From a virus (Duplodnaviria; Heunggongvirae; Uroviricota; Caudoviricetes): a stretch of 64,000 nucleotides of DNA. The stretch lies in the IMG/VR virus record IMGVR_UViG_3300021405_000008; one strand, given 5' to 3'. Positions 27,018 through 60,463 of the stretch are shown here, in pieces (position 1 is the first letter of the stretch; each line of letters begins with the position of its first letter). The notes beneath the pieces were generated by a model. The model had not been told where the DNA came from. It worked only from the letters and a program-made list of their open reading frames with translations, and made no database searches. Both the position numbers and the translations under genes were made by a program.

Positions 27018-27063
27018 TTCATGTCCTTCTGTGATGGTGGCAGTTAATGAATTTCAAAGCGGG

Positions 27064-29134: not shown

Positions 29135-29325
29135 TTCTTCTCCTCCGGCAAGTCAATGTAAGTGCGTTCGCCGCTCTTAACGCGGAGCGCATCGATAGCG
29201 TCCATTATGCGTTCTGGGGTTTCATCCCAGCGTTTCGACAGATCTCTTATTTTACTCTGCGGTTCTTTATTGTGGGCTTCATCGACCAGCTCCATGAGTT
29301 TCTCGAATGGACGACGCAGCTTCAC
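29131..29325 (-). CDS. hypothetical small protein
   Basis: 64 aa ORF. Confidence 0.3.
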   Translation of the reverse strand: MKLRRPFEKLMELVDEAHNKEPQSKIRDLSKRWDETPERIMDAIDALRVKSGERTYIDLPEEKK

Positions 29326-29951: not shown

Positions 29952-30198
29952 CTACCGACGGATCTGCTGGGTTGAATGACAAATCTACTGCCAATTCCCC
30001 GGTGTCCTCATCTCCGACTACTGCATCATCTGGTACATTATTCTGGCTAGCCCAATCCCTCAGATATCCCCAGGTGATCTGACTCATTGTCTGACTTACC
30101 TCTCCGAATGATTCTGACATTATCTCTTCTAGCGCTATGTCGCTCAGTTCAAATCCCGTGTCTGTCTGGCTTACATCCTCCTCGCCCCAGCTTGGCAT
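29905..30198 (-). CDS. small acidic protein
   Basis: 97 aa, Asp/Glu-rich. Confidence 0.35.
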   Translation of the reverse strand: MPSWGEEDVSQTDTGFELSDIALEEIMSESFGEVSQTMSQITWGYLRDWASQNNVPDDAVVGDEDTGELAVDLSFNPADPSVDEPATLSIQFDDVNE

Positions 30199-31394
30199 TA
30201 CTCACCCTTTACATTAATAATCTGGTGCAGGGTGTGCTCTATCTTGACTAGGTCTGCCGCATCTCGCATGACGACATCGACATCCTTGTAGGCGGCGGGG
30301 ATTTCATCGATGAACTTGTCTGAGTGCCTCCACTCGATACCCTGCATTGCCTCTTCTAGGTCCGCGAAGCTGAATGCACGCTCTGCTGCCTTCCGCCCAT
30401 ACTGACGGCCTGCGCCGTGCGGTGATGAGTTCAGGGATAGCGTGTTGCCGAGTCCCGAGACAACGTAGGATGCCGTCCCCATGGATCCAGGGATAAGCCC
30501 CATACGGCCCTCACTGGCGTCGATCGCGCCCTTCCGCGAAAGCCATACATGTCCCTCTATATCTGCCGATGGCCTGAAGCGCCGCAGTAGATCTTCGGTC
30601 ATCGGCTCGGTGTAATTGTGATGGCACTGGATGCGCTCAGATACGTACCAGTCGTCTATCTCCTGAGTTATGCACCCAAGGACACGGTCCATCATCTCTT
30701 CGCGGTTCATACGCGCGAACTCCTGCGCCCAAAAGAGGCAGCGCAGGTAGTCCCTGAACTCTGGCGTGCCTTCGACAAGATATGCGAGGTCGGAATCAGG
30801 TAGCGTCACCCAATTGTACTTGCAGTATGCTTGGGCAATTGCGATGGACTTCATTGCTAGCTTATTGCCGACGCCTCGGCTGCCGCTGTGCAGGAATGCC
30901 CATACCCGGTCTTCCTCATCTACTGAGACTTCGATGAAGTGGTTGCCCGAGCCGAGCGATCCAAGCTGCATATCCCAGTCGGCTATCTGAGTGGCGTCCT
31001 CGGCCCCATCCATCTTTGCCAGGATATTGACCCGGTGTTCGGTCCTCCGGTCCCATAGTTTCTGATTGTACTTACCTACTGACAGCGGTATGGCTCGCTC
31101 GATCCGCTCCCGGATTCGCCGCCTGAGATCAGGGTCTTCTAGCTGTTCCGCGTATAGGCTTGTGCGGTGCGCGATCATGCCGCAGCCGATATCGACTCCC
31201 ACAGCTGCCGGCATAATTGCGCCAATTGTCGGGATGACTGATCCCACCGTCGCGCCTTTGCCCCAGTGAGCATCAGGCATAATTGCAACATGCGGAAAGA
31301 TGAATGGCATAGAGGCAGTATTAAGCGCCTGCTGCTTCGCGCCATCTTCGAGGATTGATGCCCAGCTGAACAAGCGATTGTCTATCTTCTCCAT
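30198..31394 (-). CDS. rtcB: RtcB-family RNA ligase
   Basis: 398 aa; MPDAHWGKGATVGSV, GVDIGCGM, GSGNHFIE, HNY, SPHGAGR motifs. Confidence 0.85.
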   Translation of the reverse strand: MEKIDNRLFSWASILEDGAKQQALNTASMPFIFPHVAIMPDAHWGKGATVGSVIPTIGAIMPAAVGVDIGCGMIAHRTSLYAEQLEDPDLRRRIRERIERAIPLSVGKYNQKLWDRRTEHRVNILAKMDGAEDATQIADWDMQLGSLGSGNHFIEVSVDEEDRVWAFLHSGSRGVGNKLAMKSIAIAQAYCKYNWVTLPDSDLAYLVEGTPEFRDYLRCLFWAQEFARMNREEMMDRVLGCITQEIDDWYVSERIQCHHNYTEPMTEDLLRRFRPSADIEGHVWLSRKGAIDASEGRMGLIPGSMGTASYVVSGLGNTLSLNSSPHGAGRQYGRKAAERAFSFADLEEAMQGIEWRHSDKFIDEIPAAYKDVDVVMRDAADLVKIEHTLHQIINVKGE

Positions 31395-31477
31395 TATTGT
31401 CCGTCCAAATTCAGGCCCGGTGTGGCCCGGTTACTCCGCAGTGGCCGAGCCACACCGGGGGCTTGTGTGTTGCTCTG

Positions 31478-32521
31478 CTACTTGGCGGGGGTTGTGTTGA
31501 GTGCGAGTCCGCTCGTTGAACCAGGGAAGCAGCTAAACCCAGCCGGAAGGTTGTTCTCGCTCTTGACGTCCGTAAGGCACTGTGCGATGAGCTGGGCCAC
31601 AGTCGGGTCACCTAGCTTAGCGAATGCCTGCGAGTTCTCCTGGTTGACTAGGACGTTGGTCTTAGCGATGACGAGATTGGCAGCAGCTTGCTGGATTGCC
31701 TGTAGCTGCGCTTCCACTGGTGCCGGATATTGCATGTTCGGGAACAAGACGCTGATCACGTCGATCCGATTGCCGATGTCATGCTGCATCTGCGCAAGGA
31801 TCTGTGAACTGAACCCGGTGAACTGGCTCTGGGCTCCGGCCGTCGTGTTTACGGTCGTGGTATCGGTAATAGGCGAGTAGTCACCCACCACGTTATTCAC
31901 GACCTGCTCCAGTTCCCGGATGACGACCGCATTCGTGATGGTTGACATCAGGCTACCCTGATTAGCGTAGTCTTCGAACAGTCCACCAGCGGCAGCAGGG
32001 AGGATCTTCCACTGAATGGTAACCTTGGCGCAGGCCTGGAAGTTTCCGCCGATTCGTACTGGCAGGGAGCCATCGCAGGATTCAGTACCATTCTGCATCA
32101 CGCCGTCGGTACCACCCGGTTCGAAGGTCGTGGTCTGAACAGTTTCGTCTTCGTCCACGACGCCGAGCCATGGTTGCCATGTCCAGTGTGTTCCCGGACT
32201 CAGTGTACTACCTGACACGGAATTGAATGCGATCGGGATTCCCACAGTCTTCGGCGGCACGCTCTTGATTCCGCCGACCGCGTAGAAGGCGATGCCAAGC
32301 ACGACGCATATAGCTCCAGCACCATACCTAGCTCCACGAGACCAGATCGAGTCTGAACGTGGGGATAGATCCGGACCCAGAGCACCCCAGGCGATAAATA
32401 CGATCGCAATGACCCAGAAGATGATTGCGATCACGAATAGGAAACTACTCACCCTTCCGTCGTTCCAGGCTGTCAAGCTCATCATCGGTAGTAGCCTGGT
32501 TGATCCTATCGATGAGGGCAT
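31478..32521 (-). CDS. membrane protein, SPFH/band-7-like (tentative)
   Basis: 347 aa; N-terminal TM helix, Gln/Ala-rich coiled C-terminal region. Confidence 0.4.
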   Translation of the reverse strand: MPSSIGSTRLLPMMSLTAWNDGRVSSFLFVIAIIFWVIAIVFIAWGALGPDLSPRSDSIWSRGARYGAGAICVVLGIAFYAVGGIKSVPPKTVGIPIAFNSVSGSTLSPGTHWTWQPWLGVVDEDETVQTTTFEPGGTDGVMQNGTESCDGSLPVRIGGNFQACAKVTIQWKILPAAAGGLFEDYANQGSLMSTITNAVVIRELEQVVNNVVGDYSPITDTTTVNTTAGAQSQFTGFSSQILAQMQHDIGNRIDVISVLFPNMQYPAPVEAQLQAIQQAAANLVIAKTNVLVNQENSQAFAKLGDPTVAQLIAQCLTDVKSENNLPAGFSCFPGSTSGLALNTTPAK

Positions 32522-32672
32522 TCAGATCTCGCAGCCTTTTCTGCATGACCTGTGGCTCATTGCGCCTAGCGATAGCATCACGGCGGCGTTTGCCTACCGC
32601 TACTATCATTATCATCACTAGACCGCTGAGCACGACCAGGAAGGCTATTAGCCCCAGAATCAGATCAGCCAT
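32445..32672 (-). CDS. small membrane-anchored coiled-coil protein
   Basis: 75 aa; TM then charged helix. Confidence 0.35.
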   Translation of the reverse strand: MADLILGLIAFLVVLSGLVMIMIVAVGKRRRDAIARRNEPQVMQKRLRDLNALIDRINQATTDDELDSLERRKGE

Positions 32673-32739
32673 TTTACCTCCCTAGCCGCTACCGTCCCTA
32701 GCCCTAGGGTAGTCGGATACCGACTGCAAGGCGAGCTTA

Positions 32740-33747
32740 CTAGCGAATCCCGAGGCACCTGTAATTGGCAAGATGGTATAGGTACTCGTGTTCCTCGTGC
32801 GTGTCTGTATCTCCGCAGTACCTTACCGGGAGCTTTAGATGCTCGGCCATTGCGGGCGAGAGTCGAGCTGCACCCTCACGAAGTGGTTCGAGTGGGTCGA
32901 TGTCAACCCACGTCGTGGGGTTATCTCCATTTGCAGTGTGGACGTCTACCCGGCTGCGGATGGCGCAGAATCGATCGGACTCCGCGTGGAACCCGCACCT
33001 GCCAGTTTGATAGCAGATTGGCTTGAATAGCTTGATGATCTCGCGCTGCTGCCAGCGCTCATGCACCGGTCCATAGTCGAGGATGGCACGGATCATTTCA
33101 TACCAGACTTGCTTCCATTCCCACTGAGCCTGAGAGCAGAGTCGCTTGCCAGCTAGCGGGATGAGATTGCGCAGGTTTGTCTTGTAATGCATGCGAGTGG
33201 TGATATTGTGTGGCAGACGACCCCTGGCATCCTCAGCCGGGATACCGCCGCCAATCAGACCATTGTAGACGCTTGCGTCATATTCATTGGCCTGATCCCA
33301 CAGGACACGCATCGGGTGATCATCGTCGAGACCCGCGATGCTCGGCGGGTATGCCACCTCAAGCTCGGCATTTTCCTTCACTGCGAAGCGCTGTGATTCC
33401 TGCACAAATACAGCTGTCCTCTGTCGTACAGCCTGGTGAGTGAAGGCCCTTGTGACACCCTCGAAGAAGAAGTGCAAATCGATGAATTCAAGACCCGATT
33501 GCAGCTCTGTCCTGGTCATTTCCTCTAGCCAGTGCATGGCTAGCGGCTTATTGATATCCATCGGGTCAGTTACCATGTGACCGATGTACAGTTCGCACGC
33601 AGCCGCCATCGTCCGGAGCGGCTGATGAGTCATTGAGACGAGGGTTACTCTTGGCTCCACCTGCTGTCCTGCATCAGCCATTGCATTGTGGGCTGATTCG
33701 TACATTGCTACGTCGGACCACTTCTGGACGCTATTACCGGGAGCCAT
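32740..33747 (-). CDS. thyX: flavin-dependent thymidylate synthase ThyX
   Basis: 335 aa; RQRTAVFVQESQRF (RHR-x7-S / ESQR ThyX signature) and downstream Arg-rich motif. Confidence 0.75.
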   Translation of the reverse strand: MAPGNSVQKWSDVAMYESAHNAMADAGQQVEPRVTLVSMTHQPLRTMAAACELYIGHMVTDPMDINKPLAMHWLEEMTRTELQSGLEFIDLHFFFEGVTRAFTHQAVRQRTAVFVQESQRFAVKENAELEVAYPPSIAGLDDDHPMRVLWDQANEYDASVYNGLIGGGIPAEDARGRLPHNITTRMHYKTNLRNLIPLAGKRLCSQAQWEWKQVWYEMIRAILDYGPVHERWQQREIIKLFKPICYQTGRCGFHAESDRFCAIRSRVDVHTANGDNPTTWVDIDPLEPLREGAARLSPAMAEHLKLPVRYCGDTDTHEEHEYLYHLANYRCLGIR

Positions 33748-34091
33748 TACCTCTTACCTCCGCTGCTTTTCTGGAATGCGATTCGACCGGCTTCAGCAGG
33801 TACAATATCGACATACATGTGTGGATAGATTTGCCCTACTTCGGAGCCGACTGGAATTACAATAGAGCAGGGCCCCCTAGACTTCATTGCGGCTAGCCTA
33901 ATTACCTGGGCGGTAATTGTGGGATTGGCCAATGCATCCTCGACATGTATCAGAGACGCTGCTACCGTATGCCCCGCCACGATAGGATCATCTGGCAGAA
34001 ATATGATGCCGTGCTCGGTACGTTCGATATAACCCCTGCTGCTGATTACCGTGCAGATCAGGCACGGGTTCTGGCTGCCGGTCAAATTCAT
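33747..34091 (-). CDS. HIT-like protein (start uncertain; overlaps upstream gene about 100 nt)
   Basis: N-terminal CLICTVIS…GIIFLPDDPIVAGHTV HIT-like; no clean HxHxHxx triad. Confidence 0.4.
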   Translation of the reverse strand: MNLTGSQNPCLICTVISSRGYIERTEHGIIFLPDDPIVAGHTVAASLIHVEDALANPTITAQVIRLAAMKSRGPCSIVIPVGSEVGQIYPHMYVDIVPAEAGRIAFQKSSGGKR

Positions 34092-34920
34092 CGCCCATGT
34101 CCTTCGGTATGCTGATATTCACTTGATTTGGATACAGATCGCCGATGTCCCTGATGTGTGCGCTATTGATACTTTCTATTGCGCTGTAAGTGTCCCAGTA
34201 TGCTGTATCGATCCACACTTCATTCTTCCAGGCACCGAAGCGCCCGGTGCGAAGTATGTTCGTGTAACAGTCACAGTCTGTTGAGATCGGCTTTCGAATG
34301 ATCCTGGCATTCGTAGGCATCCCGTGCTGTGAGCCGACTGCCCATTCCGTTACTGGTACACCAAAGACCCGCGAGCTGCGCACCCATGCTGGAGCCGGTG
34401 CTGCATTGAATATGATGGTGTTGTCAGGCTGGTCTGGGTACGAGAACTCCGGTGTGACTCCAACTTCTTTGTACAGAAAGTGGTGCCCGACGGTACACAT
34501 GGTTTGCGCACTGGCCGTGCTAACCACTAGATCGGCTTCGCGATGAATGTTGCGCATCTCACGAGGTGTGAGGACATAATCGGTGATCAGACCGCTGTAT
34601 AGCTGCCAGAGCCGTTCGTACGTCTCGCGGTGCCGCCATGCATGATAGTGCTGCCTGAGTATGTCACCGTTGATACCTACATTGATATCACCATACAGCT
34701 TGTAGCGATACTGCAGGATACTCCCGCCGATAACTACCTGATGAATGGTACCGTCGGGGTGATCGGTATTGATGCCCGGTATCGGCCTCTGCAGAAGTAG
34801 TGGGCCCTCCTGTGGAGTCATCCGAGCCGGTGCTAGAATTGTTACATCGGCTTTCTGTCCGGTCGCAGCGTGCGCTGCTGCTAGCCCGGCCGGTCCCGCA
34901 CCAATAACGATGACCTTCAT
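33988..34920 (-). CDS. FAD/NAD(P)-binding oxidoreductase
   Basis: 310 aa; N-terminal VIVIGAGPAGLAAAHAA Rossmann dinucleotide motif. Confidence 0.55.
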   Translation of the reverse strand: MKVIVIGAGPAGLAAAHAATGQKADVTILAPARMTPQEGPLLLQRPIPGINTDHPDGTIHQVVIGGSILQYRYKLYGDINVGINGDILRQHYHAWRHRETYERLWQLYSGLITDYVLTPREMRNIHREADLVVSTASAQTMCTVGHHFLYKEVGVTPEFSYPDQPDNTIIFNAAPAPAWVRSSRVFGVPVTEWAVGSQHGMPTNARIIRKPISTDCDCYTNILRTGRFGAWKNEVWIDTAYWDTYSAIESINSAHIRDIGDLYPNQVNISIPKDMGDEFDRQPEPVPDLHGNQQQGLYRTYRARHHISAR

Positions 34921-42591: not shown

Positions 42592-42777
42592 TCTACCCAC
42601 CCCTGGGCGCCCGCAGCAACTTTAGGGAGGATGCTGCTTGCCACACTATCCCGTGTGGCAGGGCGGACTCCACTACGCCCACAGCACCCTCCGGTCCGGG
42701 GAGCGTACGGGCAGCAAGATGCCCGGCGGATACTCCAGCAGGGACAAAGCCCGTCGAGCAATACCCGTACGCTCCGG

Positions 42778-42849
42778 TGGGGAGAGCAGGATTTGAACCC
42801 ACACTCTTGGCTTCGGAAGCCAAAGCTCTATCCATTGAGCTACCTCCCC
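42778..42849 (-). tRNA. tRNA-Arg (anticodon CCG)
   Basis: Cloverleaf: GGGGAGG acceptor, GCTC/GAGC D-stem, TTGGC-TTCCGAA-GCCAA anticodon arm, TTCAAAT T-loop. Confidence 0.8.
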
Positions 42850-43236: not shown

Positions 43237-43362
43237 ACCTCCTCTGTGACATTTTCTGATGGCCGGGAGTACCCCTGGAGAACTACTCCCGGCCAACACT
43301 GTCCTCGCGGATACAGCATCTCTACCCGACCGCGCAGCGTCCTGCGCCGAGCCCAGAGATCG

Positions 43363-43437
43363 TAGCGGGGGCCAGATTTGAACTGGCGTGTATGCAGATT
43401 ATGAGTCTGCTGAGCGACCATACTGCTCGACCCCGCC
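43363..43437 (-). tRNA. tRNA-Met (anticodon CAT; elongator-type or Ile-lysidine possible)
   Basis: GGCGGGG acceptor, GAGC/GCTC D-stem, GCAGA-CTCATAA-TCTGC anticodon arm, GCCAG-TTCAAAT-CTGGC T-arm, discriminator A. Confidence 0.8.
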
Positions 43438-43969: not shown

Positions 43970-44385
43970 GAGTGATTTCTCCTCCAGTGCCGACGGTAGG
44001 CAGACTTAGTTCGAAAGCGCGAGGGGGCATGATTGCTGCCAGGGACCTCGCAGTTGTGGATCTGTACGTTTTTGCCGTGCCTCTCCTCTGTCCTCCACTG
44101 ACAGTAGTAGAACGTTCCGCCACGCTTTGGCTCAGGAACATACGATATGCCGAATAGCTCCGTGATCTGCCTTCGATTTAGCTCAACTTTGGCAGAGAAG
44201 TCATCAATGGCTATCATGACCTGCGCGTAGCCATTATCAGGCATAGTTGTTATCCAGAATGAATTTGACCCAGTCAGATGGCTCAGTGTTGGTATTGATG
44301 GCATACCTCGGGTATGCGCACGGAGCTTTCTGATACGCGAAGACTGCGGACGAGGAGCAGACGACGTGCCCGGATATTTCCCCAT
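43966..44385 (-). CDS. hypothetical protein with Cys/His cluster
   Basis: 139 aa; YYCQW…HNC…H…H. Confidence 0.3.
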   Translation of the reverse strand: MGKYPGTSSAPRPQSSRIRKLRAHTRGMPSIPTLSHLTGSNSFWITTMPDNGYAQVMIAIDDFSAKVELNRRQITELFGISYVPEPKRGGTFYYCQWRTEERHGKNVQIHNCEVPGSNHAPSRFRTKSAYRRHWRRNHS

Positions 44386-44812
44386 TAGTATCCTTCACCG
44401 ACCACGGGTCTGGTATTGCCGGAAGGTGCAAGTCGCGGAGATCATCGCCGACGATCGCATCCCAGTCATACTTGGTGTTGATCAGGCGATTCATCCAGTA
44501 GCAGATCTCGGTGCGCTGCTCGTCGGTCTTCGGCTGATGGCGGTTCGTGACGGTGTACTGGCTCATGAGGTAGCCGGTCGCGTCCCGCCATCCTACGCCG
44601 CCTGGGCGGCCCTCCAGGCACCACCAGGTGCTCTTGGCATCGATGTGGTCGAGGACCGCAATGTGGTTGTCAAGTCCGGGCTCGCCTAGCAGCGTCGAGC
44701 CAAAGTTGATCACTTCGGCTGCTAGTCCGCTGGTGCGAACACAGAGTACATCTCCGGCTTGCACCCCGACGGTATTGTCAGGAAGCTTGAGGGCAGTTGT
44801 AGTGCTGGTCAT
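44237..44812 (-). CDS. hypothetical protein, possible Cys-peptidase-like domain
   Basis: 191 aa; translationally coupled (ATGA) to upstream PT-rich membrane protein. Confidence 0.35.
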   Translation of the reverse strand: MTSTTTALKLPDNTVGVQAGDVLCVRTSGLAAEVINFGSTLLGEPGLDNHIAVLDHIDAKSTWWCLEGRPGGVGWRDATGYLMSQYTVTNRHQPKTDEQRTEICYWMNRLINTKYDWDAIVGDDLRDLHLPAIPDPWSVKDTNGEISGHVVCSSSAVFAYQKAPCAYPRYAINTNTEPSDWVKFILDNNYA

Positions 44813-45489
44813 GAAGGCGATCCCGATGGTGCGGTTGAAGTGGGGGCGATAGTCGTCAGAGTGGGGGTTGGAGTAGCTGTAGTAGGGGTGTCAGTCGGAC
44901 TGGTAGGAGGGGTTGATACTGGGCTGGTGGGAGGCGTTGTCGTAGGCGGCGCTGACGTTGGGCTACTGTGCGTCGGGGGAGCGGTCGTCGGCGCGGCCGA
45001 GGTAGGCGGCGGGGACGTAGGACGGCGCGTAGGCGGCGTGGTCGTCGGTGCCCGGGTAGGGACGGCCGACGCGGACGGCGCGGCGCTTACCGTCCGGCTA
45101 GGCGTCGCAGAGATTTTACTGGTGGCTGTGGTCGTCGGGGTAGAAGTGGGCGCTGTCGTATCCAGGAAGACGTTGCTCGGCAGTTTCTTCGGCGCAGGCT
45201 TAGCAGCAGGTGTGATTGCGATGCGTTTGGATGGAGTTGCCGTTGGATCTATGAATGCCTCCACGGGGCTAGATACCTGTCCCTTGCTGCTGACGGTCGG
45301 GGTCGTCGGAGTGCTCGATGGGTTGCTCTCGAACCTGGCCACCCCGATGTACCCCGCCGTCGCAACTGTGCCTACCCCGACGATAAACAGGATGAGAATC
45401 GTCGCGTTCCGGTACGGCCATCTCAGTTTCTTCTTCTGCTTTACGATCGGAATCCCGACCGTATCATCATGCCCTATATTTCTTGTCAC
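44809..45489 (-). CDS. membrane-anchored Pro/Thr/Ser-rich protein
   Basis: 226 aa; N-terminal TM ILILFIVGVGTVATAGYIGV then about 150 aa PT/S-rich low complexity. Confidence 0.45.
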   Translation of the reverse strand: MTRNIGHDDTVGIPIVKQKKKLRWPYRNATILILFIVGVGTVATAGYIGVARFESNPSSTPTTPTVSSKGQVSSPVEAFIDPTATPSKRIAITPAAKPAPKKLPSNVFLDTTAPTSTPTTTATSKISATPSRTVSAAPSASAVPTRAPTTTPPTRRPTSPPPTSAAPTTAPPTHSSPTSAPPTTTPPTSPVSTPPTSPTDTPTTATPTPTLTTIAPTSTAPSGSPS

Positions 45490-45695
45490 AGCAGTCCCTC
45501 CTCTGGGATTGTATGCCGATTATCACTTATGGTCTTTCGGCTTGTGTCCGCAAACGCCGCATTTCCTCTTCGGAATAAGGAATGACCCGGTCATTATGCT
45601 ACTAGCAAGTCTCGCTGTACCTACGGTAGCATTGCCTGCTGCACTTCCACAGCATCTCTTGCAGTTTGAGCAACCAGTCAGAACTCGTCTCATGG

Positions 45696-46727
45696 CTAGC
45701 TCCAGCAGTGCACGTAGTCGATGACCATCTTGGCTGATGGGAGCAGAGACGGGTTCGGGTTAACGCTGTTCGTACCGGTGCCGTTGGTCGCGATGTTGAG
45801 CAGACAGTACGAGCCACCGTTGTTGTCGAACGGCCACGGCGTAAGATTGGACGGCGTGGCGGATGCATACAGGGTATTGTCAATGAACAGTTGTACCGAA
45901 CCCTTTGCCCAGTCCAGGCGATAGGTATGGAACCCGCCGTCCATCTGGTTACTAGCGCGGCCACCCTGGCTAGCGGTAGCGATGCCGTTCCAGATTGTGC
46001 CCTCGGTGAAACCGGTACCGTAGTTCTCCATGACGTCGATCTCGCCGCAGCCCGGCCAGGAGCCTTCACCGAGCAGCCAGAACGCAGGCCAGCATCCCGG
46101 CACATTCGGTACCGCAATGGATGCCTCCCAGTGTCCGAACTGCTGGTGGAAGTTGCTCTTAATCCTCGCGCTGTTGAACCCGCCGCCGTCGGCCGGGGTG
46201 ACAGCAATAACGAGGTGCCCGTTGCCGTCGAGATAAGAGTTGGCAGTTGACTTGACGTAGTTCTCGGTCTCATTGTTTCCGCCGATAGAGGCCCCAGAAC
46301 CGACATCCCAAAGCCAGTTGGTCGCGCTGGGCAGTGTGCCCGCAGGGCCGTTGAACTCATCGGCAAAGGTGTACGTCGGAGGAGGTGTAACCACCACGGG
46401 CGGCGGGGTAGTCGCCGGGGGCTGGTGTGCGAAAGCTGGCTGCCCCCAACTACAAACCGGGGCCGTAGTTGCCGTGTGCTCGCCTACTGCGTTTCGAGTC
46501 CTCATTGATATCTCCGCATCTGATCCGGCCACTATTAGACCGGCAGCCGATATGCCGATTGTTGCCAGGAACCTCCTGCGGTCCCTGATTCTTACCTGCT
46601 GCGCCTCAGAAACTTCGGCCGAGGTAGGCCCCCGATCGCTGAACAGAATGCGATCGCGGTATTTATGTAGAGGAAGATGTATGCGCCATTTATTACGTCG
46701 TGGGCTGTCAATTGGATTCACCTCCAT
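45696..46727 (-). CDS. secreted glycoside hydrolase family 16 (beta-glucanase/laminarinase-like) with Tat signal
   Basis: 343 aa; DRRRFLATIGISAAGLIVAGS twin-arginine signal; GH16 catalytic GEIDVMENYG. Confidence 0.75.
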   Translation of the reverse strand: MEVNPIDSPRRNKWRIHLPLHKYRDRILFSDRGPTSAEVSEAQQVRIRDRRRFLATIGISAAGLIVAGSDAEISMRTRNAVGEHTATTAPVCSWGQPAFAHQPPATTPPPVVVTPPPTYTFADEFNGPAGTLPSATNWLWDVGSGASIGGNNETENYVKSTANSYLDGNGHLVIAVTPADGGGFNSARIKSNFHQQFGHWEASIAVPNVPGCWPAFWLLGEGSWPGCGEIDVMENYGTGFTEGTIWNGIATASQGGRASNQMDGGFHTYRLDWAKGSVQLFIDNTLYASATPSNLTPWPFDNNGGSYCLLNIATNGTGTNSVNPNPSLLPSAKMVIDYVHCWS

Positions 46728-47812
46728 GCCCAGGACTGTGACAACAAGTAGCCATTAATGGCAGACTTGAAGTCGGACAGTGTATCGAGTGCGTGAATTT
46801 CATAGCGGAACCGCTCGTTGCGAATGCCATTCCGCGTCGGGTCTTGGACGAATGCCGCGTGGAACGTGGTGGCGGCGTAGGAAACTAGCCATCCGCTTGG
46901 CCCGTCGTAACTCTCGTATGCTGTGCAGGTCTTCGGACAGGTATAGCCCAGGTCGGAGTATGGCACGACCCAGGCATCCCCGTTGAAACGACTGCCCAGC
47001 TCCGAGGTCAGCTCGGCAATGCCATCTGACATCTCCGACTTGACCCGGATAGTGTATGCTGCGTCGCTCTCGCCAGGTAGCTTACAGGCATTGAAGGCGA
47101 AGCAGTTCTTGTCATAGTCTTGCTGGTAATGCCCGTCCTGCCCAGCCTCGATACTAAACGAGTAGACGCTTGGACTTAGGGCCTTGAGCTGTGGCCATGT
47201 CAGATCCCATCCAATGTCGCCCTTTGGGCACTCCGGCTGGACATTTACCCCGCTGATCTTTGGGCCGCATTTGCCATTCGCGCCATCCGCGAACCCGGTC
47301 ACGAGGAATGCGACGGCTGTGAAACGGTAGTGGTAGAGGATCGGCTGTGCTCCCTCTAGGAAGTCACCGATGCCATTGTCTACCGTGATGAAGAATGGCT
47401 TCGTGGGTAGCTTGTACTGCTTGTTTGCTAGCCAAGCGAGGTACTGACTCATTGTCACTGTGTGGTAGCCCTGATCGTACATCCAGGCCATCTCGGCCGT
47501 GAACTGGGATGTACTCACGCTCTCATAGTCATGTGATTGGCAGATCGGAGCAGATGCCGCACAGTCATTATCCATCTCGTGATATACTAGGACCGGGACC
47601 TGCGATGCGGTGGCTACCGGAACCTTATGGCCGGCTACCTGCTTGACGCTCGCCAGGGTTGATGCCGGGGCGGTTGCCGATGATGATTCTGTATTGCTAG
47701 ATCCATACGTGAGCACCACGGTGTGTATCACCAGCATAGAGCCAGCGATTATGACTACTAGAATGGTGGAGAAGATGCCTATCATCATGTAACGGCGGCG
47801 ACGGAAGCTCAT
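46718..47812 (-). CDS. membrane-anchored polysaccharide deacetylase (CE4/NodB-like)
   Basis: Start at MSFRRRRYMM (ATGA coupling to upstream stop); TM; PVLVYHEM…FITVDNG NodB-homology-like motifs. Confidence 0.6.
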   Translation of the reverse strand: MSFRRRRYMMIGIFSTILVVIIAGSMLVIHTVVLTYGSSNTESSSATAPASTLASVKQVAGHKVPVATASQVPVLVYHEMDNDCAASAPICQSHDYESVSTSQFTAEMAWMYDQGYHTVTMSQYLAWLANKQYKLPTKPFFITVDNGIGDFLEGAQPILYHYRFTAVAFLVTGFADGANGKCGPKISGVNVQPECPKGDIGWDLTWPQLKALSPSVYSFSIEAGQDGHYQQDYDKNCFAFNACKLPGESDAAYTIRVKSEMSDGIAELTSELGSRFNGDAWVVPYSDLGYTCPKTCTAYESYDGPSGWLVSYAATTFHAAFVQDPTRNGIRNERFRYEIHALDTLSDFKSAINGYLLSQSWAWR

Positions 47813-49050
47813 GAGTCGATACCCACCTTCATCGCTTCGGCCTGCATGCCCTCGGCTTTGTACTGCGGGGCCCATAGATCGCCCATAGATGCACTTAGCA
47901 CCTTGTACCAGCTCACTACGCCCCAGGCGATAGCAATCAGGTTATAGATGATCATGTGCACGAGGAGGACCGCTAGCAGGGTATCTTTCCAGTCGCGCGC
48001 CCAGTCGTGTCCTCGGATGCGTCGGACATGGATGAATTCCACTAGCATGAGGAATCCCGTCAGTAGCTGCCACTTCCAGTTGAAGCGCCCGGGGTCGACG
48101 ATTGCCTCGGTACCGTTCAGGGCAGTCCATATCATCCAGAAGCTGATGTTCATGAACAGGAATCCGCGCTGTAGCCACTCGCGGTAGTTCAGGCGATTGC
48201 ACCCGAATCGAAGCAAGTCACCGCATGTGCCGGCTTCCCACTTGATACGCTGATACCAGAGTGACTTCCATGTCTTCATGCTACCGGTGTAGCAGAAGAC
48301 CGTTTCCGACATCCAGCATTTCCAGCCCTTCTGCCGGAGTCGGTATGTGAGGTGGTAGTCCTCGACTACGCTTTCGTAAGTCCAGGGGCCTTCCTGGTTC
48401 GGACGGGCGGCCACTGCTTGTAGAGCGATATTCCGGAACGCGCATCCAGTACCAGATATCACCCGGCACCAGCCACGGCTTAGGGTCTGTGTTGCGCTCT
48501 TTGCGAACTCGTACCTTTGCAGCCTAGGCAGGTAGCCCTTGCCCGTCATGATTGGCTGACTCGATGACCCTCCAAGTTGGGGATCATTAGCGAACTCCGC
48601 TTCCCAGTCGGCTACCGCGTGCGGAGGCATCGTAGTATCACCATCAGCGCAGATGATGATGTCGGCGGTCTGGCAGTACTTGTTCCATGCCATGTTTAGT
48701 GCGCCGGACTTGCGGTGGGTGTTGCCTTCCGTTTCGATCACCCGGACACCGTACAGATTGGCGATTACTACAGTCCAGTCCGTAGAGTTATCCGAGATAA
48801 CGATAATGTCATCCAGTCTTCTAGTCTGATCTAGAAGAGACTGAATTGTATTGCCGATGTCCTCTTGCTCATTGTGGGCCGGGATGAGAGCTACAATCCT
48901 CGGCGATAGCTTGTGTGGCACGGTATTTGCCAGCATAGATTCTAGATCGCTGCGGGTGGTAATGTCGCAGGCTGAAACTGCTCTGGCTGGATTGGCATGG
49001 TTGGTAGTCCTTGCCCTCATCCAGGAAAACTCATCGTTGCTTGGAGTCAC
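47809..49050 (-). CDS. processive family-2 glycosyltransferase (PgaC/NodC/cellulose-synthase-like)
   Basis: 413 aa; IPAHNEQEDI, ICADGDT (D,D,D), QRIKW (Q-x-x-R-W) motifs; multiple C-terminal TM helices. Confidence 0.75.
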   Translation of the reverse strand: MTPSNDEFSWMRARTTNHANPARAVSACDITTRSDLESMLANTVPHKLSPRIVALIPAHNEQEDIGNTIQSLLDQTRRLDDIIVISDNSTDWTVVIANLYGVRVIETEGNTHRKSGALNMAWNKYCQTADIIICADGDTTMPPHAVADWEAEFANDPQLGGSSSQPIMTGKGYLPRLQRYEFAKSATQTLSRGWCRVISGTGCAFRNIALQAVAARPNQEGPWTYESVVEDYHLTYRLRQKGWKCWMSETVFCYTGSMKTWKSLWYQRIKWEAGTCGDLLRFGCNRLNYREWLQRGFLFMNISFWMIWTALNGTEAIVDPGRFNWKWQLLTGFLMLVEFIHVRRIRGHDWARDWKDTLLAVLLVHMIIYNLIAIAWGVVSWYKVLSASMGDLWAPQYKAEGMQAEAMKVGIDS

Positions 49051-49254
49051 TTGGTTTCCCTTTGGTTATCGGCTATTTAGTCAGCCGAAGATAGTAGATC
49101 TTGACCTTCTCTGGTTCTATCTCGATCTCGCAAATATTGATATCCTCAAACGGCTGCGGCTGCGGCGCTTGCTTGCCGCTTATATACCAGCGCCATTCGA
49201 CACTAATCATAGCCAAACTCTAGGATTGAGTGGGTCAGGCTCATTCCTGACATA

Positions 49255-49300
49255 GCACTCGGCTCGTGCCCGGGCGGGGTCACGAGCCGAGTGGCTTTTG
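49255..49300 (+). terminator. strong hairpin with T-run (terminator-like, + orientation)
   Basis: 13-bp perfect stem CACTCGGCTCGTG/CACGAGCCGAGTG then GCTTTTGT. Confidence 0.4.
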
Positions 49301-49591
49301 TCCGCTCGGCCCGTCCGAGCAACGGGCCGAGCAGAACCAGCCCCGCAATCGGTACTGCCCGAAGCTATGCCTTTGCCGTCCCAGAGGAGGAGATTCGACA
49401 TTGGCTAGACTCTCCGTTCAGTCCGTTCGCGGGGCTGGTCTTTCCACCTCCCCTGATGCTCTGGACCCCAGCGTCACGACACGCTAGTTGCACCAGGGAA
49501 GCTTTGGCGGGACTCCTGAACTACGGGGTATCCAGGAGTCCCTGTCACTTTACCTGCCGAGGTGGGGCAGCAGGCAAAGCGGTCTAGCGGT

Positions 49592-49762
49592 TTAGTAGGG
49601 AGCTGCACCCTTCTTGCGGGTGACCGGGCGACCCCCGGCGGGCTTCGCAGTCGCAGCTGTGGCCTTGGCGGTAGCAGCCTTGGCGGCAGCCGGCCTAGCC
49701 TTGGTGGCGACCTTAGCGACTGGCGCAGCAGCCTTGGCCTTGGCAACCGGCTTGGCCGACGC
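49592..49762 (-). pseudogene. in-frame 57-codon Lys/Ala-rich continuation downstream of TAG (readthrough extension or recently truncated tail)
   Basis: Same frame stays open to TAA 49592-49594: ASAKPVAKAAAPVAKVATKARPAAAKAATAKATAATAKPAGGRPVTRKKGAAPY. Confidence 0.35.
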
Positions 49763-49789
49763 CTAGGCAACCGGCTTGGCCGACGCCTT
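49742..49789. repeat. perfect 24-bp tandem duplication differing at one base (Lys AAG vs stop TAG on - strand)
   Basis: ggcaaccggcttggccgacgcct(a/t) x2. Confidence 0.8.
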
Positions 49790-50296
49790 GGCGGCGGGCT
49801 TGGCCTTAGGCGCAGCAGCCTTGGCGGCCTTGGCCGCCGCAGCCTCGGCCTGACGCTCGGACCGGCGCTCCTTGTTGAAGGCCGATCGCTGGAACTCCAT
49901 GCGGGCAGTACCAGCGATGGCGACTAGGCGAACCGGGTCATCCGCGCCAACCTCAGCGATGGAAGTACCAGTGGGCTCGAAGATGGCGAAGTCCATCCAT
50001 GCAGCAAAGTCCTGCATGACGGGTGTGATGGGCTTGGATGCGTACGGGGTGTAGTCGGGGGTGTCGTCGTCTTCGTCATCCTCGTCGTCGTCATCCTCCT
50101 CTTCATCCTCGTCCTCATCCTCCTCCTCTTCATCCTCCTCTTCATCGTCCAGCTCGTCGTCCTCGTCTTCCAGTTCCTCGTCGTCTTCGTCTTCCAGTTC
50201 CTCGTCCTCCAGCTCCAGGTCGTCGTCGACCTCTTCTGGTTCCTCGACTGGCGCAGACTTGGCTTTGGACTTGGACGTGGCAGTGCGGGTGGCCAT
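49763..50296 (-). CDS. highly acidic protein (about 60-residue poly-Asp/Glu block) with Lys/Ala-rich C-terminus; alternative start 50686
   Basis: ATG 50296 preceded by GAAGGAGAAGG RBS; EEPEEVDDDLELEDEELEDEDDEELEDEDDELDDEEEDEEEEDEDEDEEEDDDDEDDEDDD; ends AKPVAKASAKPVA at TAG. Confidence 0.5.
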   Translation of the reverse strand: MATRTATSKSKAKSAPVEEPEEVDDDLELEDEELEDEDDEELEDEDDELDDEEEDEEEEDEDEDEEEDDDDEDDEDDDTPDYTPYASKPITPVMQDFAAWMDFAIFEPTGTSIAEVGADDPVRLVAIAGTARMEFQRSAFNKERRSERQAEAAAAKAAKAAAPKAKPAAKASAKPVA

Positions 50297-50666
50297 AACC
50301 TTCTCCTTCAGGGGTCTTACATTTTTGAGACGTAGTGGAGCGATAGGCTTATCGTACCGTACCGCCGGACGCGCCGCTACCGGAACGGGGCGATGAGGTC
50401 GATTACTTTCGGTATTTCCGGGGCCATGCTCAAGGATTATCGACGCGAGTGACCCCTCTTCAATGAGGAATCGGGCGGGCTCTCGGCTTCTGACATGGAC
50501 CGCAAAATACCCCTGACTAGACGACCTGGCCGATATCCCATAGTTCCAGGCGGATCGCACAAGCATCCCCGCAGCATCAGGTGTCTCTTCATATTTCTCC
50601 TTGATGTACTGCTCTGCGGATCGGCCGGTCATGGGCCTGGTGAGCGCCCCATATATCTTCCAGCCA

Positions 50667-50891
50667 TTAATCCTCGTCAGTGACATCTGCCTCGGACACC
50701 TCCTGGAACACCCTGGACTCTGTGTGGATGATATTAATGTTTCGGTCCTCTGCCCCGATAGCTATCTCTGCTGACAACTCGGCCGCACTCGTGGCATGAA
50801 TAATCTTGCCCCACGATATGGCATCGAGTGGCTTGTTCATTGGGCGGATCACTCGGTATATGACCGACCGCTCGATGATTACTTCGCTCAT
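50667..50891 (-). CDS. hypothetical protein
   Basis: 74 aa ORF. Confidence 0.3.
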   Translation of the reverse strand: MSEVIIERSVIYRVIRPMNKPLDAISWGKIIHATSAAELSAEIAIGAEDRNINIIHTESRVFQEVSEADVTDED

Positions 50892-51649
50892 AACAGTATA
50901 ACCCTTCCTATGAGGGCGTCCATGGCTTCCTCGACCCCCAGTGTTCCGTTTCTTGCCCGACGAGTTATGCTAGCCATCTTCAGGCAGCCCTGGTACTGCC
51001 AGCAGCCCTGCCAGTAGACTCGCTTCCGGTACTTCGCGTGTAGCTTCCGCATACCGGGTAGATTATCATCATCAATCGCTGGCCAGATATCATGCCAGGC
51101 GAAATCCCATTTAGTCCCACGTGGCCATTGCATATCATATGCATCGCCACTATGAATGGTAACCCTGTCATCTGTTATGAGTGGCCTAACAAGATCAACA
51201 ATTGCTTCGTTATGTTCCACAACGTCAATGTGTGATATCTTGTACTGGAGTGCACCGTGTACTGCTACACCAAGACCAAGCCCGTTAATGAGCAGCCTAA
51301 TGCCAGGACCACTATCCAATTCGGCCCACCAGAGCCTATTGAACAATGGTGTGTGTTCCATTATCTCGGCCCGAGTATCACTCATCCATATCTTACGGAG
51401 ATTAGAACCATTTTCACCAGCACCAGGCACAGTCTCGACTAGTCTAGTGAATGTACCCGAGCCCGGGTCACGATCCATACCTTCCTTAGCTATGATCTCT
51501 GCCCTATGCTTGTCAATCTTGCCGATGCTGAATTTCTCAATGGAGAATCTGCCGAGCTTGGCTTCTGGATAATTCAGCTGGAATTTCTTCCATTCTGTAT
51601 TCGCATCTAGCTGATCGATAGCTTCCCTGACAGTTATCATTTTCCCCAT
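50888..51649 (-). CDS. hypothetical protein, possible Rossmann-fold SAM methyltransferase
   Basis: 253 aa; LLINGLGLGVAVHG…DVVEHN…HSGDAYD. Confidence 0.35.
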   Translation of the reverse strand: MGKMITVREAIDQLDANTEWKKFQLNYPEAKLGRFSIEKFSIGKIDKHRAEIIAKEGMDRDPGSGTFTRLVETVPGAGENGSNLRKIWMSDTRAEIMEHTPLFNRLWWAELDSGPGIRLLINGLGLGVAVHGALQYKISHIDVVEHNEAIVDLVRPLITDDRVTIHSGDAYDMQWPRGTKWDFAWHDIWPAIDDDNLPGMRKLHAKYRKRVYWQGCWQYQGCLKMASITRRARNGTLGVEEAMDALIGRVILL

Positions 51650-53589
51650 CGGACTGCCTCCAAGGCTGCTACCTCGCGTGCCTTCGGCTTAGACGACTGT
51701 ACCACTGCGCGCTGCTCGTCTGTGTTGACTGCGATCCATTCTTCTACGGTGCCTATGCTGATAGGACGATGTACGGTCACCTGGTGCATACGCGATACCC
51801 TGTGGATTCGCGAGACGAGCTGGAACTGTGCATCATCCGTCCAGAGTGGGTCCATGATTACCATTTCATCGCAGCAGGCATCAAGGGTGATCGACTCACC
51901 GCCTGCCTTCGAGTTGAGGATGGCCACCTGTACCTCGCTGTCCGGGTCATTGAACTGCTGGACTAGCTCCAGGCGCTTCCGGTCGCTGGTAGCCCCGGTT
52001 AGCGTCAGTGTGTGAATGCCGGCATCATTCAGTATCCCCTCAATCAGGTGCACTATCTGCGTGAATGAGGATGCCACGATTATCTTGGCGTCGCTACCCT
52101 CGCGCTCCTCCATGAACTGCATGAACCAGTCGATCTTATTTGACGGCAGAGCGGGCCTGAAGTCCTCGCCATCCATCCTGCCATATGTGATCGCAAATTG
52201 CCGAAGTCTTGATATCTCCGCGAGCGTGCCATTGGCCATAAGCCTGCCATTAAGAATATGGGCCTCGGCCAGATCGGCCATCTCTCGGTATGCTCGGTGC
52301 TGCTTCGGCTCCATATCTAGCCAGATGTAATTGCTGCTATTGTCTGATATCAAGCTAGGTGTCCCTGTGTATATGATCGGGGGCAGGTCGGGCGCTGCCA
52401 TCTCTTTGGTACGTGCGAGGTAGTATGGCCGGATAGCCGCATCCCATGCAGCATCGTCGAGTGGCTTCGGAACCTTGGCCGGCTTGCCTTTAGCGTCGGG
52501 CTGTATCACCTTGGAGTAGCGACCTTCCGTTACTCCAAAATGGGTTTCGGCAAATCTCCAGTAGCTCCCGAACACGTCGGGGCGGCACCAGTTCAGTGTT
52601 CCCCAGAGCCTGGTCAGATTTGATTTGCCAGGAGTTCCAGATAGCGCGATAGCAAGACCACCATCCTTACTAACTCGCTTTCGGAGCAGAATCGCGCCAT
52701 ACCGGCCTTGTGTGATTCGCTTGCTCTGCACGTTAGCGGTAGAGGCAAGCATATTGTGAGCCTCATCGATGACGACCGCATCCCATGTCTGCTCGAATAG
52801 GAATGGCCATTCATGTTCGACTATTGTCTTATGCTTCTTCATGTGATCGCTGTCTTCGAGACATTCCATGGGCCACTTACTCTTAACCTGCTCCACGCCA
52901 TCAGGGCAGATCTCAATCCGCTTGGCCCTGATCATCTCGTTATTAATGATGAGCATCTTACGACCACCAGTGTGATAATAGAATGCCTTCATGACATCCT
53001 CACGCTGCTGGTGAGAGCCCTGGGCCACGAATGTGGCTATCCCCGGGGCCCATCGGTTGACCTCACGCTCCCATGTGGCATAGGTCGCGGTACGCGGGCA
53101 GCCGACAAGGATGTTCTTGGCATCACATTCAATCAATGTAGCTATAGTCTGCAAGGTTTTGCCGAGGCCGGGCTCATCACCGAGGATGCCCTGGCCCGCC
53201 AATGTCATGAATCCAACACCGCTAGCCTGGTACGGACGATCCTCAATGGCGGCCGCCAGGAATGGGGCCTCTTCATGTGTCCGGCTCAGCTTGACCGTAG
53301 CGCCGGATCGCATCTCTTCTAGCATCTCGCCAGCCTTGATGGCGGCGCGAGCCCAGTCAGAAAGAGGCTGCCGGATGGTCAGCTGCGCGCCGAACACGCG
53401 GCGGAAGGACCGGCAGGTGTCCATGGTAAGCGGGTACTGCCAGCAGACAAACTTATCCTTCTGTCCTTCCCGCTTCTCATACTTTGGCTTCGCGCCCGGC
53501 ACCATCTTCGCCCAGTCCTTGCCAGCGCCGCCCGCATACGGGATCTTGGCGAGTACATACTCGCCATCAGTGGTAATATCAGCCTGCAT
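51637..53589 (-). CDS. SNF2-family DNA helicase/translocase
   Basis: 650 aa; Walker A GDEPGLGKT, DEAH box VVIDEAHNM, C-terminal helicase motifs. Confidence 0.85.
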   Translation of the reverse strand: MQADITTDGEYVLAKIPYAGGAGKDWAKMVPGAKPKYEKREGQKDKFVCWQYPLTMDTCRSFRRVFGAQLTIRQPLSDWARAAIKAGEMLEEMRSGATVKLSRTHEEAPFLAAAIEDRPYQASGVGFMTLAGQGILGDEPGLGKTLQTIATLIECDAKNILVGCPRTATYATWEREVNRWAPGIATFVAQGSHQQREDVMKAFYYHTGGRKMLIINNEMIRAKRIEICPDGVEQVKSKWPMECLEDSDHMKKHKTIVEHEWPFLFEQTWDAVVIDEAHNMLASTANVQSKRITQGRYGAILLRKRVSKDGGLAIALSGTPGKSNLTRLWGTLNWCRPDVFGSYWRFAETHFGVTEGRYSKVIQPDAKGKPAKVPKPLDDAAWDAAIRPYYLARTKEMAAPDLPPIIYTGTPSLISDNSSNYIWLDMEPKQHRAYREMADLAEAHILNGRLMANGTLAEISRLRQFAITYGRMDGEDFRPALPSNKIDWFMQFMEEREGSDAKIIVASSFTQIVHLIEGILNDAGIHTLTLTGATSDRKRLELVQQFNDPDSEVQVAILNSKAGGESITLDACCDEMVIMDPLWTDDAQFQLVSRIHRVSRMHQVTVHRPISIGTVEEWIAVNTDEQRAVVQSSKPKAREVAALEAVRWGK

Positions 53590-58797: not shown

Positions 58798-59099
58798 GCC
58801 TTCCTAATTGCACTCGGGTGAATTTCTGGATCGGGTTCCCCGGTGAACAACCACTCTGTTGTCTCGCCGGACAGCTGAACATTCTCGCCAGTCACGCTCC
58901 GAGTTTCATGGTTGCCCGAGTTTTCCGATTCCATTTTTCTCCATTTTGAAATTCTAGCGGGAGGCAGTTTTGAACTATATCCGACTAACCCTATCGGGAA
59001 TAACGGATACATAATGCCTCCGCTTATGAATGTAACCCAGCATATTAGCGCTACCCCTGTGGCCAGAAGTATCGTGAGTGTTACCAATCTAATGTTCAT
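58773..59099 (-). CDS. small membrane protein
   Basis: 108 aa; N-terminal TM helices. Confidence 0.35.
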   Translation of the reverse strand: MNIRLVTLTILLATGVALICWVTFISGGIMYPLFPIGLVGYSSKLPPARISKWRKMESENSGNHETRSVTGENVQLSGETTEWLFTGEPDPEIHPSAIRKAWDRLWRR

Positions 59100-60463
59100 A
59101 ATTCTCCCGTATATTCCCCCGCATAAGTACGGATAGCATCCGTGATCCTTTGATGGATCGGGTTTAGCTCGAATGGCTGCCTATTCAGGATATCCACGGT
59201 GCGCTTCAAAACTCGCTGCGGAACTTCCACTAGTGTATCGTCAAGAAGTGACCAGCTCAGCTTATTGAGGGCTGATCGGATATGCCAATCATCGCCGTTT
59301 CGGCAAATGGCTTCTAGTTCGCGGAATAGCCCAAGACTCTCGTACGGATATCCTAGTTCCATATCGAATACATCTACTGCGGGGATCGGCGAGTCGATCA
59401 TGGCCGCCGTCTCGAATGCGTTGAATAGCGGCGATACTTCCCCTGCAGTCTCATTGTCATAAAGCCCCGGAAACGACACCTCCTCGTAACCAGGGTCATA
59501 GCCGCTTATGTAGATAGGAGCGCAGGATAGATTTGATTCGAGAGTGCCAATTGCAACGTCTAGAAGGCTGACTGGCCATCCCAGATCATTAATGGCGTGA
59601 ATTAGGAACTGATCAAGTTTGGCACCGAGAGACGCCGCGAGGAGGAGCTGGGATGACTCAAGAGCTGACTGCACGTAGAATACGATATCCGAGCTATGCA
59701 GCCTAACTATGCCATCCTCGGTATTGGCCCATTTCTTGAGCTTTGTATAGAAGATTGAATTGTCGATAACGTGGGTGAACCTGGCGGCGGAAACCAGCAT
59801 TTCAGCGCAGGAACTGCTTGCGTAGCACTCCGCAGCACGCTTCGATGCAGAGTAGATTTCGGGCGAATAGGGGCGAAGCGCTTTGCCAGTAGAGGCACAA
59901 ACCACCTGCGGAATGCCACTCATGGCCGCTGAATCCAGAACGTTCCTAGTGCCAAACAGATTAGTTGTTACCGTGCGATGCACCTCGATTTCGGCAAGAG
60001 ACGGGCTGTGCTGCGCGGCTACATGGAATATGATATCCGGACGGACTTCTGCTATAATCTCGTCTAGACGTCCACGGTCCCTAATGTCACATATCATGTA
60101 TTCCGCGCTACGCTGCGCCGTCCAGTTGACTGTGATACCCCGGCTAATGCTAACTAGCCGATCTGGCCGATACTTAACCAGCTGCGACATGAGCATCGAC
60201 CCGACGCAGCCGGTACCACCGGTAACAAGGATAACCGCACCGCCTAGCTTGTTCTGGAGCAATTGCTCCGGCAATGTAATGCTTCTATTCTGTATCTCAA
60301 GAAAACGCTTATATTCTGCGTGTGCGTCCGGCTTGGCGGCTATTAGCTGTTTCGTGAGAAATTTCAGATCATTGATTTCGCCGATACCAAGTTCAGCCTT
60401 GTGCGGTGGCACAGCCCGCTTCATTTCTGAAATTACTTCTGATGCAGTCATCACAAATATCAT
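59096..60463 (-). CDS. NAD-dependent nucleotide-sugar epimerase/dehydratase (CapD/PseB/WbpM-like polysaccharide biosynthesis protein)
   Basis: 455 aa; VILVTGGTGCVGSML (TGxxGxxG), catalytic YSASK. Confidence 0.7.
   Translation of the reverse strand: MIFVMTASEVISEMKRAVPPHKAELGIGEINDLKFLTKQLIAAKPDAHAEYKRFLEIQNRSITLPEQLLQNKLGGAVILVTGGTGCVGSMLMSQLVKYRPDRLVSISRGITVNWTAQRSAEYMICDIRDRGRLDEIIAEVRPDIIFHVAAQHSPSLAEIEVHRTVTTNLFGTRNVLDSAAMSGIPQVVCASTGKALRPYSPEIYSASKRAAECYASSSCAEMLVSAARFTHVIDNSIFYTKLKKWANTEDGIVRLHSSDIVFYVQSALESSQLLLAASLGAKLDQFLIHAINDLGWPVSLLDVAIGTLESNLSCAPIYISGYDPGYEEVSFPGLYDNETAGEVSPLFNAFETAAMIDSPIPAVDVFDMELGYPYESLGLFRELEAICRNGDDWHIRSALNKLSWSLLDDTLVEVPQRVLKRTVDILNRQPFELNPIHQRITDAIRTYAGEYTGEL

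Follow-up and report, generated by a model that had tools for sequence, protein, structure and literature searches.

The window analysed here, a 64,000-nt stretch of a viral contig, carries a minus-strand gene that stops at an in-frame TAG, beyond which the same reading frame continues to a TAA. This raises the question of whether the TAG is the proper end of the gene, a leaky signal that yields two products, or a recent change to a gene that used to be longer. The first-pass annotation had left a very recent nonsense mutation, a sequencing error and read-through side by side. We compared the window over its full length (positions 1-64000) with sibling assemblies from ENA and Logan, and collected close relatives of the gene by scanning viral and metagenome contigs with the non-repetitive core of the protein.

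An in-frame TAG at a tandem duplication

Re-reading of the sequence confirmed both stop codons, the TAG at 49765-49763 and the in-frame TAA at 49594-49592 (minus strand), as well as the two 24-nt tandem units, whose sole difference is the first base (A versus T). The repeat period given by TRF is likewise 24 nt. The features of this region are as follows.

49766..49789, minus strand: tandem unit 1, AAGGCGTCGGCCAAGCCGGTTGCC, eight codons from AAG to GCC that read KASAKPVA
49742..49765, minus strand: tandem unit 2, TAGGCGTCGGCCAAGCCGGTTGCC, identical to unit 1 except for its first base (TAG for AAG)
49763..49765, minus strand: premature amber codon; T in the window, A in the other assemblies (minus-strand bases)
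49595..49762, minus strand: cut-off Lys/Ala/Pro-rich tail of 56 codons, ending in the C-terminal motif of the family, GGRPVTRKKGAAPY
49592..49594, minus strand: original TAA stop, read in the sequence and used by the sibling

The TAG is the first codon of the second unit on the minus strand, and the peptide across the junction reads KASAKPVA-stop-ASAKPVAK. The open frame beyond it was described correctly, but its length of 57 codons holds only if the TAA is counted; there are 56 sense codons. Since there is no in-frame ATG, GTG or TTG between the TAG and the TAA, re-initiation beyond the TAG was rejected. A 98-aa ORF in another frame (49474-49770, TTG start, Arg/Pro-rich) spans the TAG and was taken to be a spurious by-product of the GC-rich repeats.

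The duplication itself is ordinary, because in-frame tandem repeats are common in the tails of relatives: one relative (L003) has a perfect 27-nt repeat in 2.3 copies and another (L008) a 12-nt repeat in 10.8 copies. The repeat junction as such gave no match in an exact-pattern DNA search of viral contigs. As judged from the sequences compared, the duplication is older than the stop, since the sibling contig described below has the duplication with AAG, and it is harmless, such repeats being normal in a low-complexity tail.

The TAG is private to the window contig

The 307-aa product of the window gene (JGI/IMG, 107,225-bp contig) shares its 90% identity cluster with a single other protein, P0205, which is 364 aa long and matches the read-through sequence at every residue: it carries the KASAKPVA duplication and has a Lys where the window has the stop. 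P0205 is encoded by ENA ERZ27253566 k141_5014170 (our L013), a contig of 107,109 bp that is 99.99% identical to the window. Alignment of this sibling with window positions 60686-39592 covered 21,095 nt and showed two mismatches and no gaps; one of the two mismatches is 49765 and the other is 60146. A Logan contig of the same phage, from SRR7093795, likewise has AAG at the codon. It ends in ...GTTGCCAAG, and this end (...GCCAAGCCGGTTGCCAAG) falls exactly at the tandem repeat, where a perfect repeat would confuse a short-k assembler. Because both assemblies read AAG, the stop comes down to a single altered base that only the window contig has. In addition to the Lys found in these two assemblies, the tails of six distinct close relatives consist of sense codons throughout.

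Comparison with the ENA and Logan assemblies over the 64 kb showed only five differences. At each of these sites ENA and Logan have the same sequence, and the window alone departs from it. The five are listed as the change seen on the plus strand.

18281, plus strand: C>A, His>Asn in a glycoside-hydrolase-like gene
19668, plus strand: G>A, synonymous
32444, plus strand: 1-nt deletion that destroys the GTG start of the Band_7 gene
49765, plus strand: T>A, the amber codon
60146, plus strand: G>A, synonymous

The two gene-disrupting changes among the five are the amber codon and the deletion at 32444. All four substitutions are to A on the plus strand (one missense, two synonymous and one nonsense), which may reflect a technical bias in the consensus of the window contig. 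Taken together, the disruptive changes and the uniform direction of the substitutions lean toward an imperfect consensus, with the reservation that the numbers are small. Two of the four substitutions are synonymous, which is a little more in keeping with true divergence between strains than with random error. If the ENA and Logan assemblies derive from one sequencing run, as they may, they count as one independent witness rather than two.

The deletion at 32444 amounts to one missing G. With that G, ENA and Logan have an intact GTG at the start of a Band_7/SPFH-family gene, within a TAGTG stop-start overlap with an upstream gene of 75 aa. The Band_7 gene occupies 31478-32443 on the minus strand; in the window, where its start codon is lost, its ORF can open only further upstream, at an ATG overlapping the neighbouring gene, and the window ORF lists give 31478..32521 and 32445..32672.

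Relatives place the original end of the gene beyond the TAG

The six distinct close relatives (L001, L002, which is the same as the L006 contig, L003, L007, L008 and L009) have cores 69-82% identical to that of the window protein. Each of them encodes the N-terminal domain, an acidic run, the core and the basic tail in one uninterrupted ORF, and these ORFs end in TGGRxxTR(K/Q)KG(A/P)APY, or in KKKKAAPF in the case of L002. The window frame, read through the TAG, ends in the same manner with GGRPVTRKKGAAPY; the sequence beyond the TAG is therefore the ancestral end of the gene. That the original end lies downstream, as the first-pass annotation suspected, is thus borne out both by the shared C-terminal motif and by a sibling genome that encodes the exact read-through protein.

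A wider family emerged from an exhaustive HMMER search with the core, which was needed since a word-indexed protein search with the core alone gave no match. The HMMER search returned 177 matches at E<=1e-3, of which 72 are true single-domain members of 135-380 aa. Proteins longer than 450 aa that matched over several stretches look like repeat proteins and were left out as unrelated; the two that we inspected contain WD40-like repeats. The common plan of the family comprises an optional N-terminal domain, a conserved Met, an acidic stretch of the EPEPE type, the core, a basic tail often carrying RRGR(P/A), and an aromatic C-terminus. The last residue is Tyr or Phe in 71 of the 72 members, and 57 of the 72 end in AP[YF]. 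Other parts of the protein vary far more: anywhere between 2 and 73 Asp/Glu residues precede the core, and the domain before the internal Met is swapped between clades, being PAS-like in some and Cys-rich (CWECD...C..H) in others. The window gene shows the complete arrangement of Met, acidic EPE stretch, core, basic tail and terminal (A/E)AP(Y/F) only when it is read through the TAG; the product as encoded in the window stops before the C-terminal motif.

The window core matches phrog_20596 (E 5.8e-6). Among 73 family members, 53 match phrog_20596 and 42 match phrog_34140, two PHROGs to which no function is assigned. The four-helix core domain is what the window clade shares with them; it differs in adding a PAS-like N-terminal domain, in an acidic block about tenfold longer, and in a Lys/Ala/Pro tail in place of an Arg-Gly-Arg (AT-hook-like) one. 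In the source databases all members are named 'hypothetical protein' apart from two with generic labels. Sequence searches of Pfam, NCBIfam, PADLOC and PDB gave nothing significant, that is, no homology to any characterised protein, and a literature search on the phrog_20596/34140 family returned nothing. In the INPHARED phage collection neither the locus, a 24-kb stretch, the full protein nor a short member found a match at the DNA or protein level; the neighbouring helicase alone did, to distant actinophage relatives. A scan of GTDB genomes found no relative, so that nothing points to a copy in a prophage or a host.

A longer gene with a conserved internal start

The first-pass annotation began the gene at the ATG at 50296. 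This ATG (50296-50294, minus strand) and the Shine-Dalgarno-like GAAGGAGAAGG before it (50309-50299) were both found again, and it does appear to be a start codon, but an internal one: the frame is open and conserved upstream, and the gene starts at the ATG at 50686.

49592..50686, minus strand: full ancestral coding sequence, 364 sense codons plus TAA, with the in-frame TAG at codon 308 in the window contig
50299..50309, minus strand: Shine-Dalgarno-like GAAGGAGAAGG before the internal ATG
50294..50296, minus strand: conserved internal ATG (Met131 of the long form), start of a short isoform of 234 aa, or 177 aa in the window contig
49509..49581, minus strand: two stem-loops (49581-49546 and 49542-49509; 14 and 13 bp, no T-run) just after the TAA

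The extent of the coding sequence is taken from the ORF that runs from 50686 to the TAG (307 aa), from full-length alignment with the relatives, and from the gene calls of the sibling contig, which start at the position equivalent to 50686. The internal Met is nearly invariant across the 73 family members even though it lies in a disordered linker. At all nine loci considered, a Shine-Dalgarno-like motif is found at -16 to -4 of the internal ATG, as against 5% of 281 control in-frame internal ATGs of the window; equivalent internal-start sites are present in L001-L003 and L007-L011. The residues before the Met vary (KE, KG, RG, RE, GGE), and all of them permit a GGAG- or GGG-rich sequence. Moreover, members that were called as short forms from the internal Met still have the N-terminal domain open in frame upstream.

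The conservation of this in-frame start and of its properly spaced Shine-Dalgarno sequence suggests that the gene probably gives rise to two nested isoforms that differ at the N-terminus, one of 364 aa from the ATG at 50686 and one of 234 aa from that at 50296; in the presence of the TAG they shrink to 307 and 177 aa, respectively. Since the ATG at 50296 is a family-wide internal start, any two isoforms would differ at the N-terminus and not at the C-terminus. Gene-in-gene precedents are the endolysin isoforms of phage phi2638A (PMC12203907) and the Fha isoforms (PMC13389060). As in gene-in-gene internal initiation generally, a conserved in-frame ATG with its own Shine-Dalgarno would here produce a full-length and an N-terminally shortened protein, with the difference that in our case the arrangement is predicted from sequence conservation.

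The 101-nt stretch at 49600-49500, which contains both stem-loops, has a minimum free energy of -46.8 kcal/mol compared to -26.4 kcal/mol for shuffled sequences (z = -7.2), and none of 200 shuffles was as stable. The hairpins follow the TAA rather than the TAG. On this folding prediction they are probably the transcription terminator of the unit, of the factor-independent kind seen in actinobacteria; a simple, consensus-based terminator scan missed them because they lack a T-run. Rfam searches of 48900-50900 gave matches at chance level only.

Origin of the stop codon

Irrespective of whether it arose by error or by mutation, we consider it highly probable that the TAG is private to the window contig and is not programmed. 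Both the nonsense mutation and the sequencing error proposed at the outset survive the finding of AAG (Lys) in the sibling and Logan assemblies. An error of sequencing or assembly in the consensus is an even bet in our estimate, and a genuine, very young amber allele is a serious contender at somewhat short of even. The case has everything in common with classical phage amber alleles and metagenome consensus errors: AAG has become TAG in an otherwise intact gene, the downstream frame has not decayed, and a near-identical genome keeps the sense codon. There is no difference in kind from either, the only oddities being the position at a tandem-duplication junction and the four substitutions all to A.

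The remaining functional readings, read-through and an advantageous truncation, are very improbable even when taken jointly. According to the first of them, a leaky or programmed TAG would yield mainly a truncated product and, as a lesser one, the full-length protein, two isoforms that differ at the C-terminus, after the manner of the A1 protein of phage Q-beta. The intact downstream frame is what recommends this reading, with 56 codons that contain neither a frameshift nor a second stop and that carry the conserved C-terminal motif of the family (GGRxVTR(K/Q)KGAAPY, common to the relatives); however, conservation of the extension at the protein level and an intact frame are expected equally of so recent a nonsense change. 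A programmed stop would be conserved among orthologues, but neither the sibling contig (99.99% identical) nor the Logan assembly has it, nor does any of the six distinct close relatives. In Q-beta, too, an in-frame stop is followed by a conserved extension, which looks functional here and is essential there, but the leaky stop of A1 is a conserved UGA, whereas the present one is a UAG that is missing from all relatives and from the sibling and lies inside otherwise ordinary coding sequence.

The decoding capacity of the phage also speaks against read-through. TAG is an ordinary terminator in the window, where it ends 31 of 93 crude ORF calls, clearly real genes among them, and reassignment of TAG is ruled out by this stop-codon usage. 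A tRNA scan found only two tRNA genes in the 64 kb and none in about 19 kb of additional flank from the sibling assemblies, the genome being about 107 kb long; a suppressor tRNA was found in neither the window nor the flank.

42776-42849 and 43362-43437, both minus strand: phage-encoded tRNA genes Arg(CCG) and Met(CAT)

Finally, the base after the TAG is a G, and Poole et al. (1995) reportedly found that UAG followed by G terminates efficiently in E. coli. Read-through with two isoforms is thus a most improbable explanation of the stop, which we continue to regard as a private error or mutation. Should the TAG be present in the phage, low-level near-cognate misreading of UAG may yield a trace of full-length protein.

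Even more improbable is that the phage benefits from the loss of its C-terminal 57 residues. The length and sequence of the tail do vary widely in the family, so the tail tolerates change; yet nothing outside the core is as well conserved as the extreme C-terminus (a single one of the 72 representatives does not end in Tyr or Phe), the TAG allele occurs in one contig only, and the second disruptive private change in that contig, at the Band_7 start (32444), points to relaxed quality rather than adaptation. The notion that the gene always ended at the TAG and that the frame beyond it is open by chance in GC-rich low-complexity sequence can be dismissed as already refuted, given that the sibling genome is translated straight through the TAG position and that the terminal 14 residues, GGRPVTRKKGAAPY, match GGRAVTRKKGAAAPY, GGRRVTRQKGAAPY and GGRAKTRQKGAAPY in relatives. 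The first-pass annotation also considered chance unlikely, on the ground of the matching composition of the open codons. Openness of the frame is weak evidence by itself: 37% of mononucleotide shuffles of the 168-nt segment after the TAG (71% GC) are open in frame over an equal length. It is homology, and not openness, that identifies the segment as real coding sequence.

Parts of the protein and a possible function

Read through the TAG, the protein comprises an N-terminal domain, an acidic block, a helical core and the basic tail.

50417..50686, minus strand: N-terminal domain (residues ~1-90), a small alpha/beta fold, weakly PAS-like
50063..50245, minus strand: hyper-acidic block of 61 residues, 54 of them Asp/Glu, with imperfect 9- to 45-nt repeats
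49817..50062, minus strand: family-defining four-helix core, DYTPYASKPIT...GTARMEFQRSAFNKERR, predicted at pLDDT 93-98

The short form would contain a short basic N-terminus, the acidic block, a non-repetitive segment of about 80 residues and the Ala/Lys/Pro-rich tail. The acidic block had been described as a run of about 60 consecutive Asp/Glu residues; the length is right, but the residues are not consecutive, as Leu, Pro and Val interrupt the run. The block is predicted to be disordered (pLDDT ~46-51). The tail has 20 Lys/Arg among 84 residues, a pI of 11.4 and AKP/AKA repeats, and the 57 residues that are lost (with Lys308 restored) carry 14 of these 20 Lys/Arg residues together with the terminal Tyr.

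Ocr and ArdA are folded proteins that mimic B-DNA through the arrangement of their acidic side chains. The earlier comparison of the acidic block with Ocr-like, anti-restriction DNA mimics finds no support beyond charge: a very high negative charge density is shared, whereas the block is predicted to be disordered and is highly variable in length, and searches of Pfam, PADLOC and PDB for similarity to Ocr or ArdA gave no match of sequence or fold.

The comparison of the tail with histone H1 and HU fares better in one respect. The Lys/Ala/Pro-rich tails of mycobacterial HupB (MDP1/Hlp) and of histone H1 offer an analogy for DNA binding, and the composition of the present tail, which evolves by in-frame tandem repeats, is of the same kind. 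An HU/IHF fold was not found, the Foldseek matches to IHF being insignificant (E ~0.5). Unlike in HupB and H1, the tail here follows a helical core that is unrelated, with a poly-acidic block ahead of it, and the likeness is one of composition only.

The TAG interrupts an otherwise intact, conserved early gene of 364 codons in a soil actinophage of about 107 kb. From composition, gene position and analogy we derive a functional model for the intact product. It could belong to the replication module as a protein associated with DNA or with the nucleoid, a tentative assignment that we hold to be possible rather than probable. In this model the basic Lys/Ala/Pro tail would bind DNA without sequence specificity, in the manner of the C-terminal tails of mycobacterial HupB or histone H1; the acidic block, being disordered, would compete with the tail or shield it, and the aromatic tip at the C-terminus would dock on a partner protein.

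Genomic surroundings

The gene lies just downstream of an SNF2-type helicase in a replication module, and this arrangement was seen in the window, in L002, in L011/L012 and in L013. The helicase (51637-53589) scores well against models of the defence helicases DpdE and ZorD, with E values down to 3e-31; the SNF2 domains that they have in common account for these scores, which do not indicate a defence role in this phage.

Several other groups of genes were noted in the window. A replication and nucleotide module at 22396-34920 encodes a Pol III alpha-like polymerase, a separate PHP protein, RtcB (30198-31394), ThyX (32740-33747) and the Band_7 protein, as labelled by Pfam. RtcB is an RNA ligase, and its presence in a phage suggests that tRNA or RNA is repaired in response to host defence. 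Just past the right-hand end of the window, Logan contig L020 contains an RNA-ligase-like gene and a Prim-Pol/AAA_25 gene. A glycan-related cluster (44237-49050 and 59096-60463) includes a family-2 glycosyltransferase (47809-49050), a 385-aa protein of no assigned family, a GH16 glycoside hydrolase (45696-46727) and an NAD-dependent epimerase/dehydratase (59096-60463), with Pfam labels taken from the gene calls of the sibling contig. This cluster may serve modification of the host cell envelope.

What the locus reveals about the gene family

An in-frame stop followed by a well-preserved frame resembled recoding, and a one-base comparison with a sibling assembly explains the stop, which is a caution for similar cases. 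Private changes disrupt genes at two or more places in the window contig, so anything else that looks odd in the window needs comparison with k141_5014170 before it is believed. The positive outcome, a modest one, is a corrected gene model, in which the gene starts at 50686 and has a second, conserved start inside it at 50296, together with the description of the family.

Should the TAG be real, the truncation should weaken DNA binding and abolish partner docking. We think it unlikely that the family acts by charge-driven self-association, forming condensates on DNA beside the SNF2 helicase; if it did, such condensates could, for example, organise the replication zone or displace host nucleoid proteins, and the TAG allele would be a natural tail-less mutant. 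The gene family itself is widespread among actinophages and uncharacterised, and it combines an unusual charge architecture with a near-universal C-terminal Tyr or Phe.
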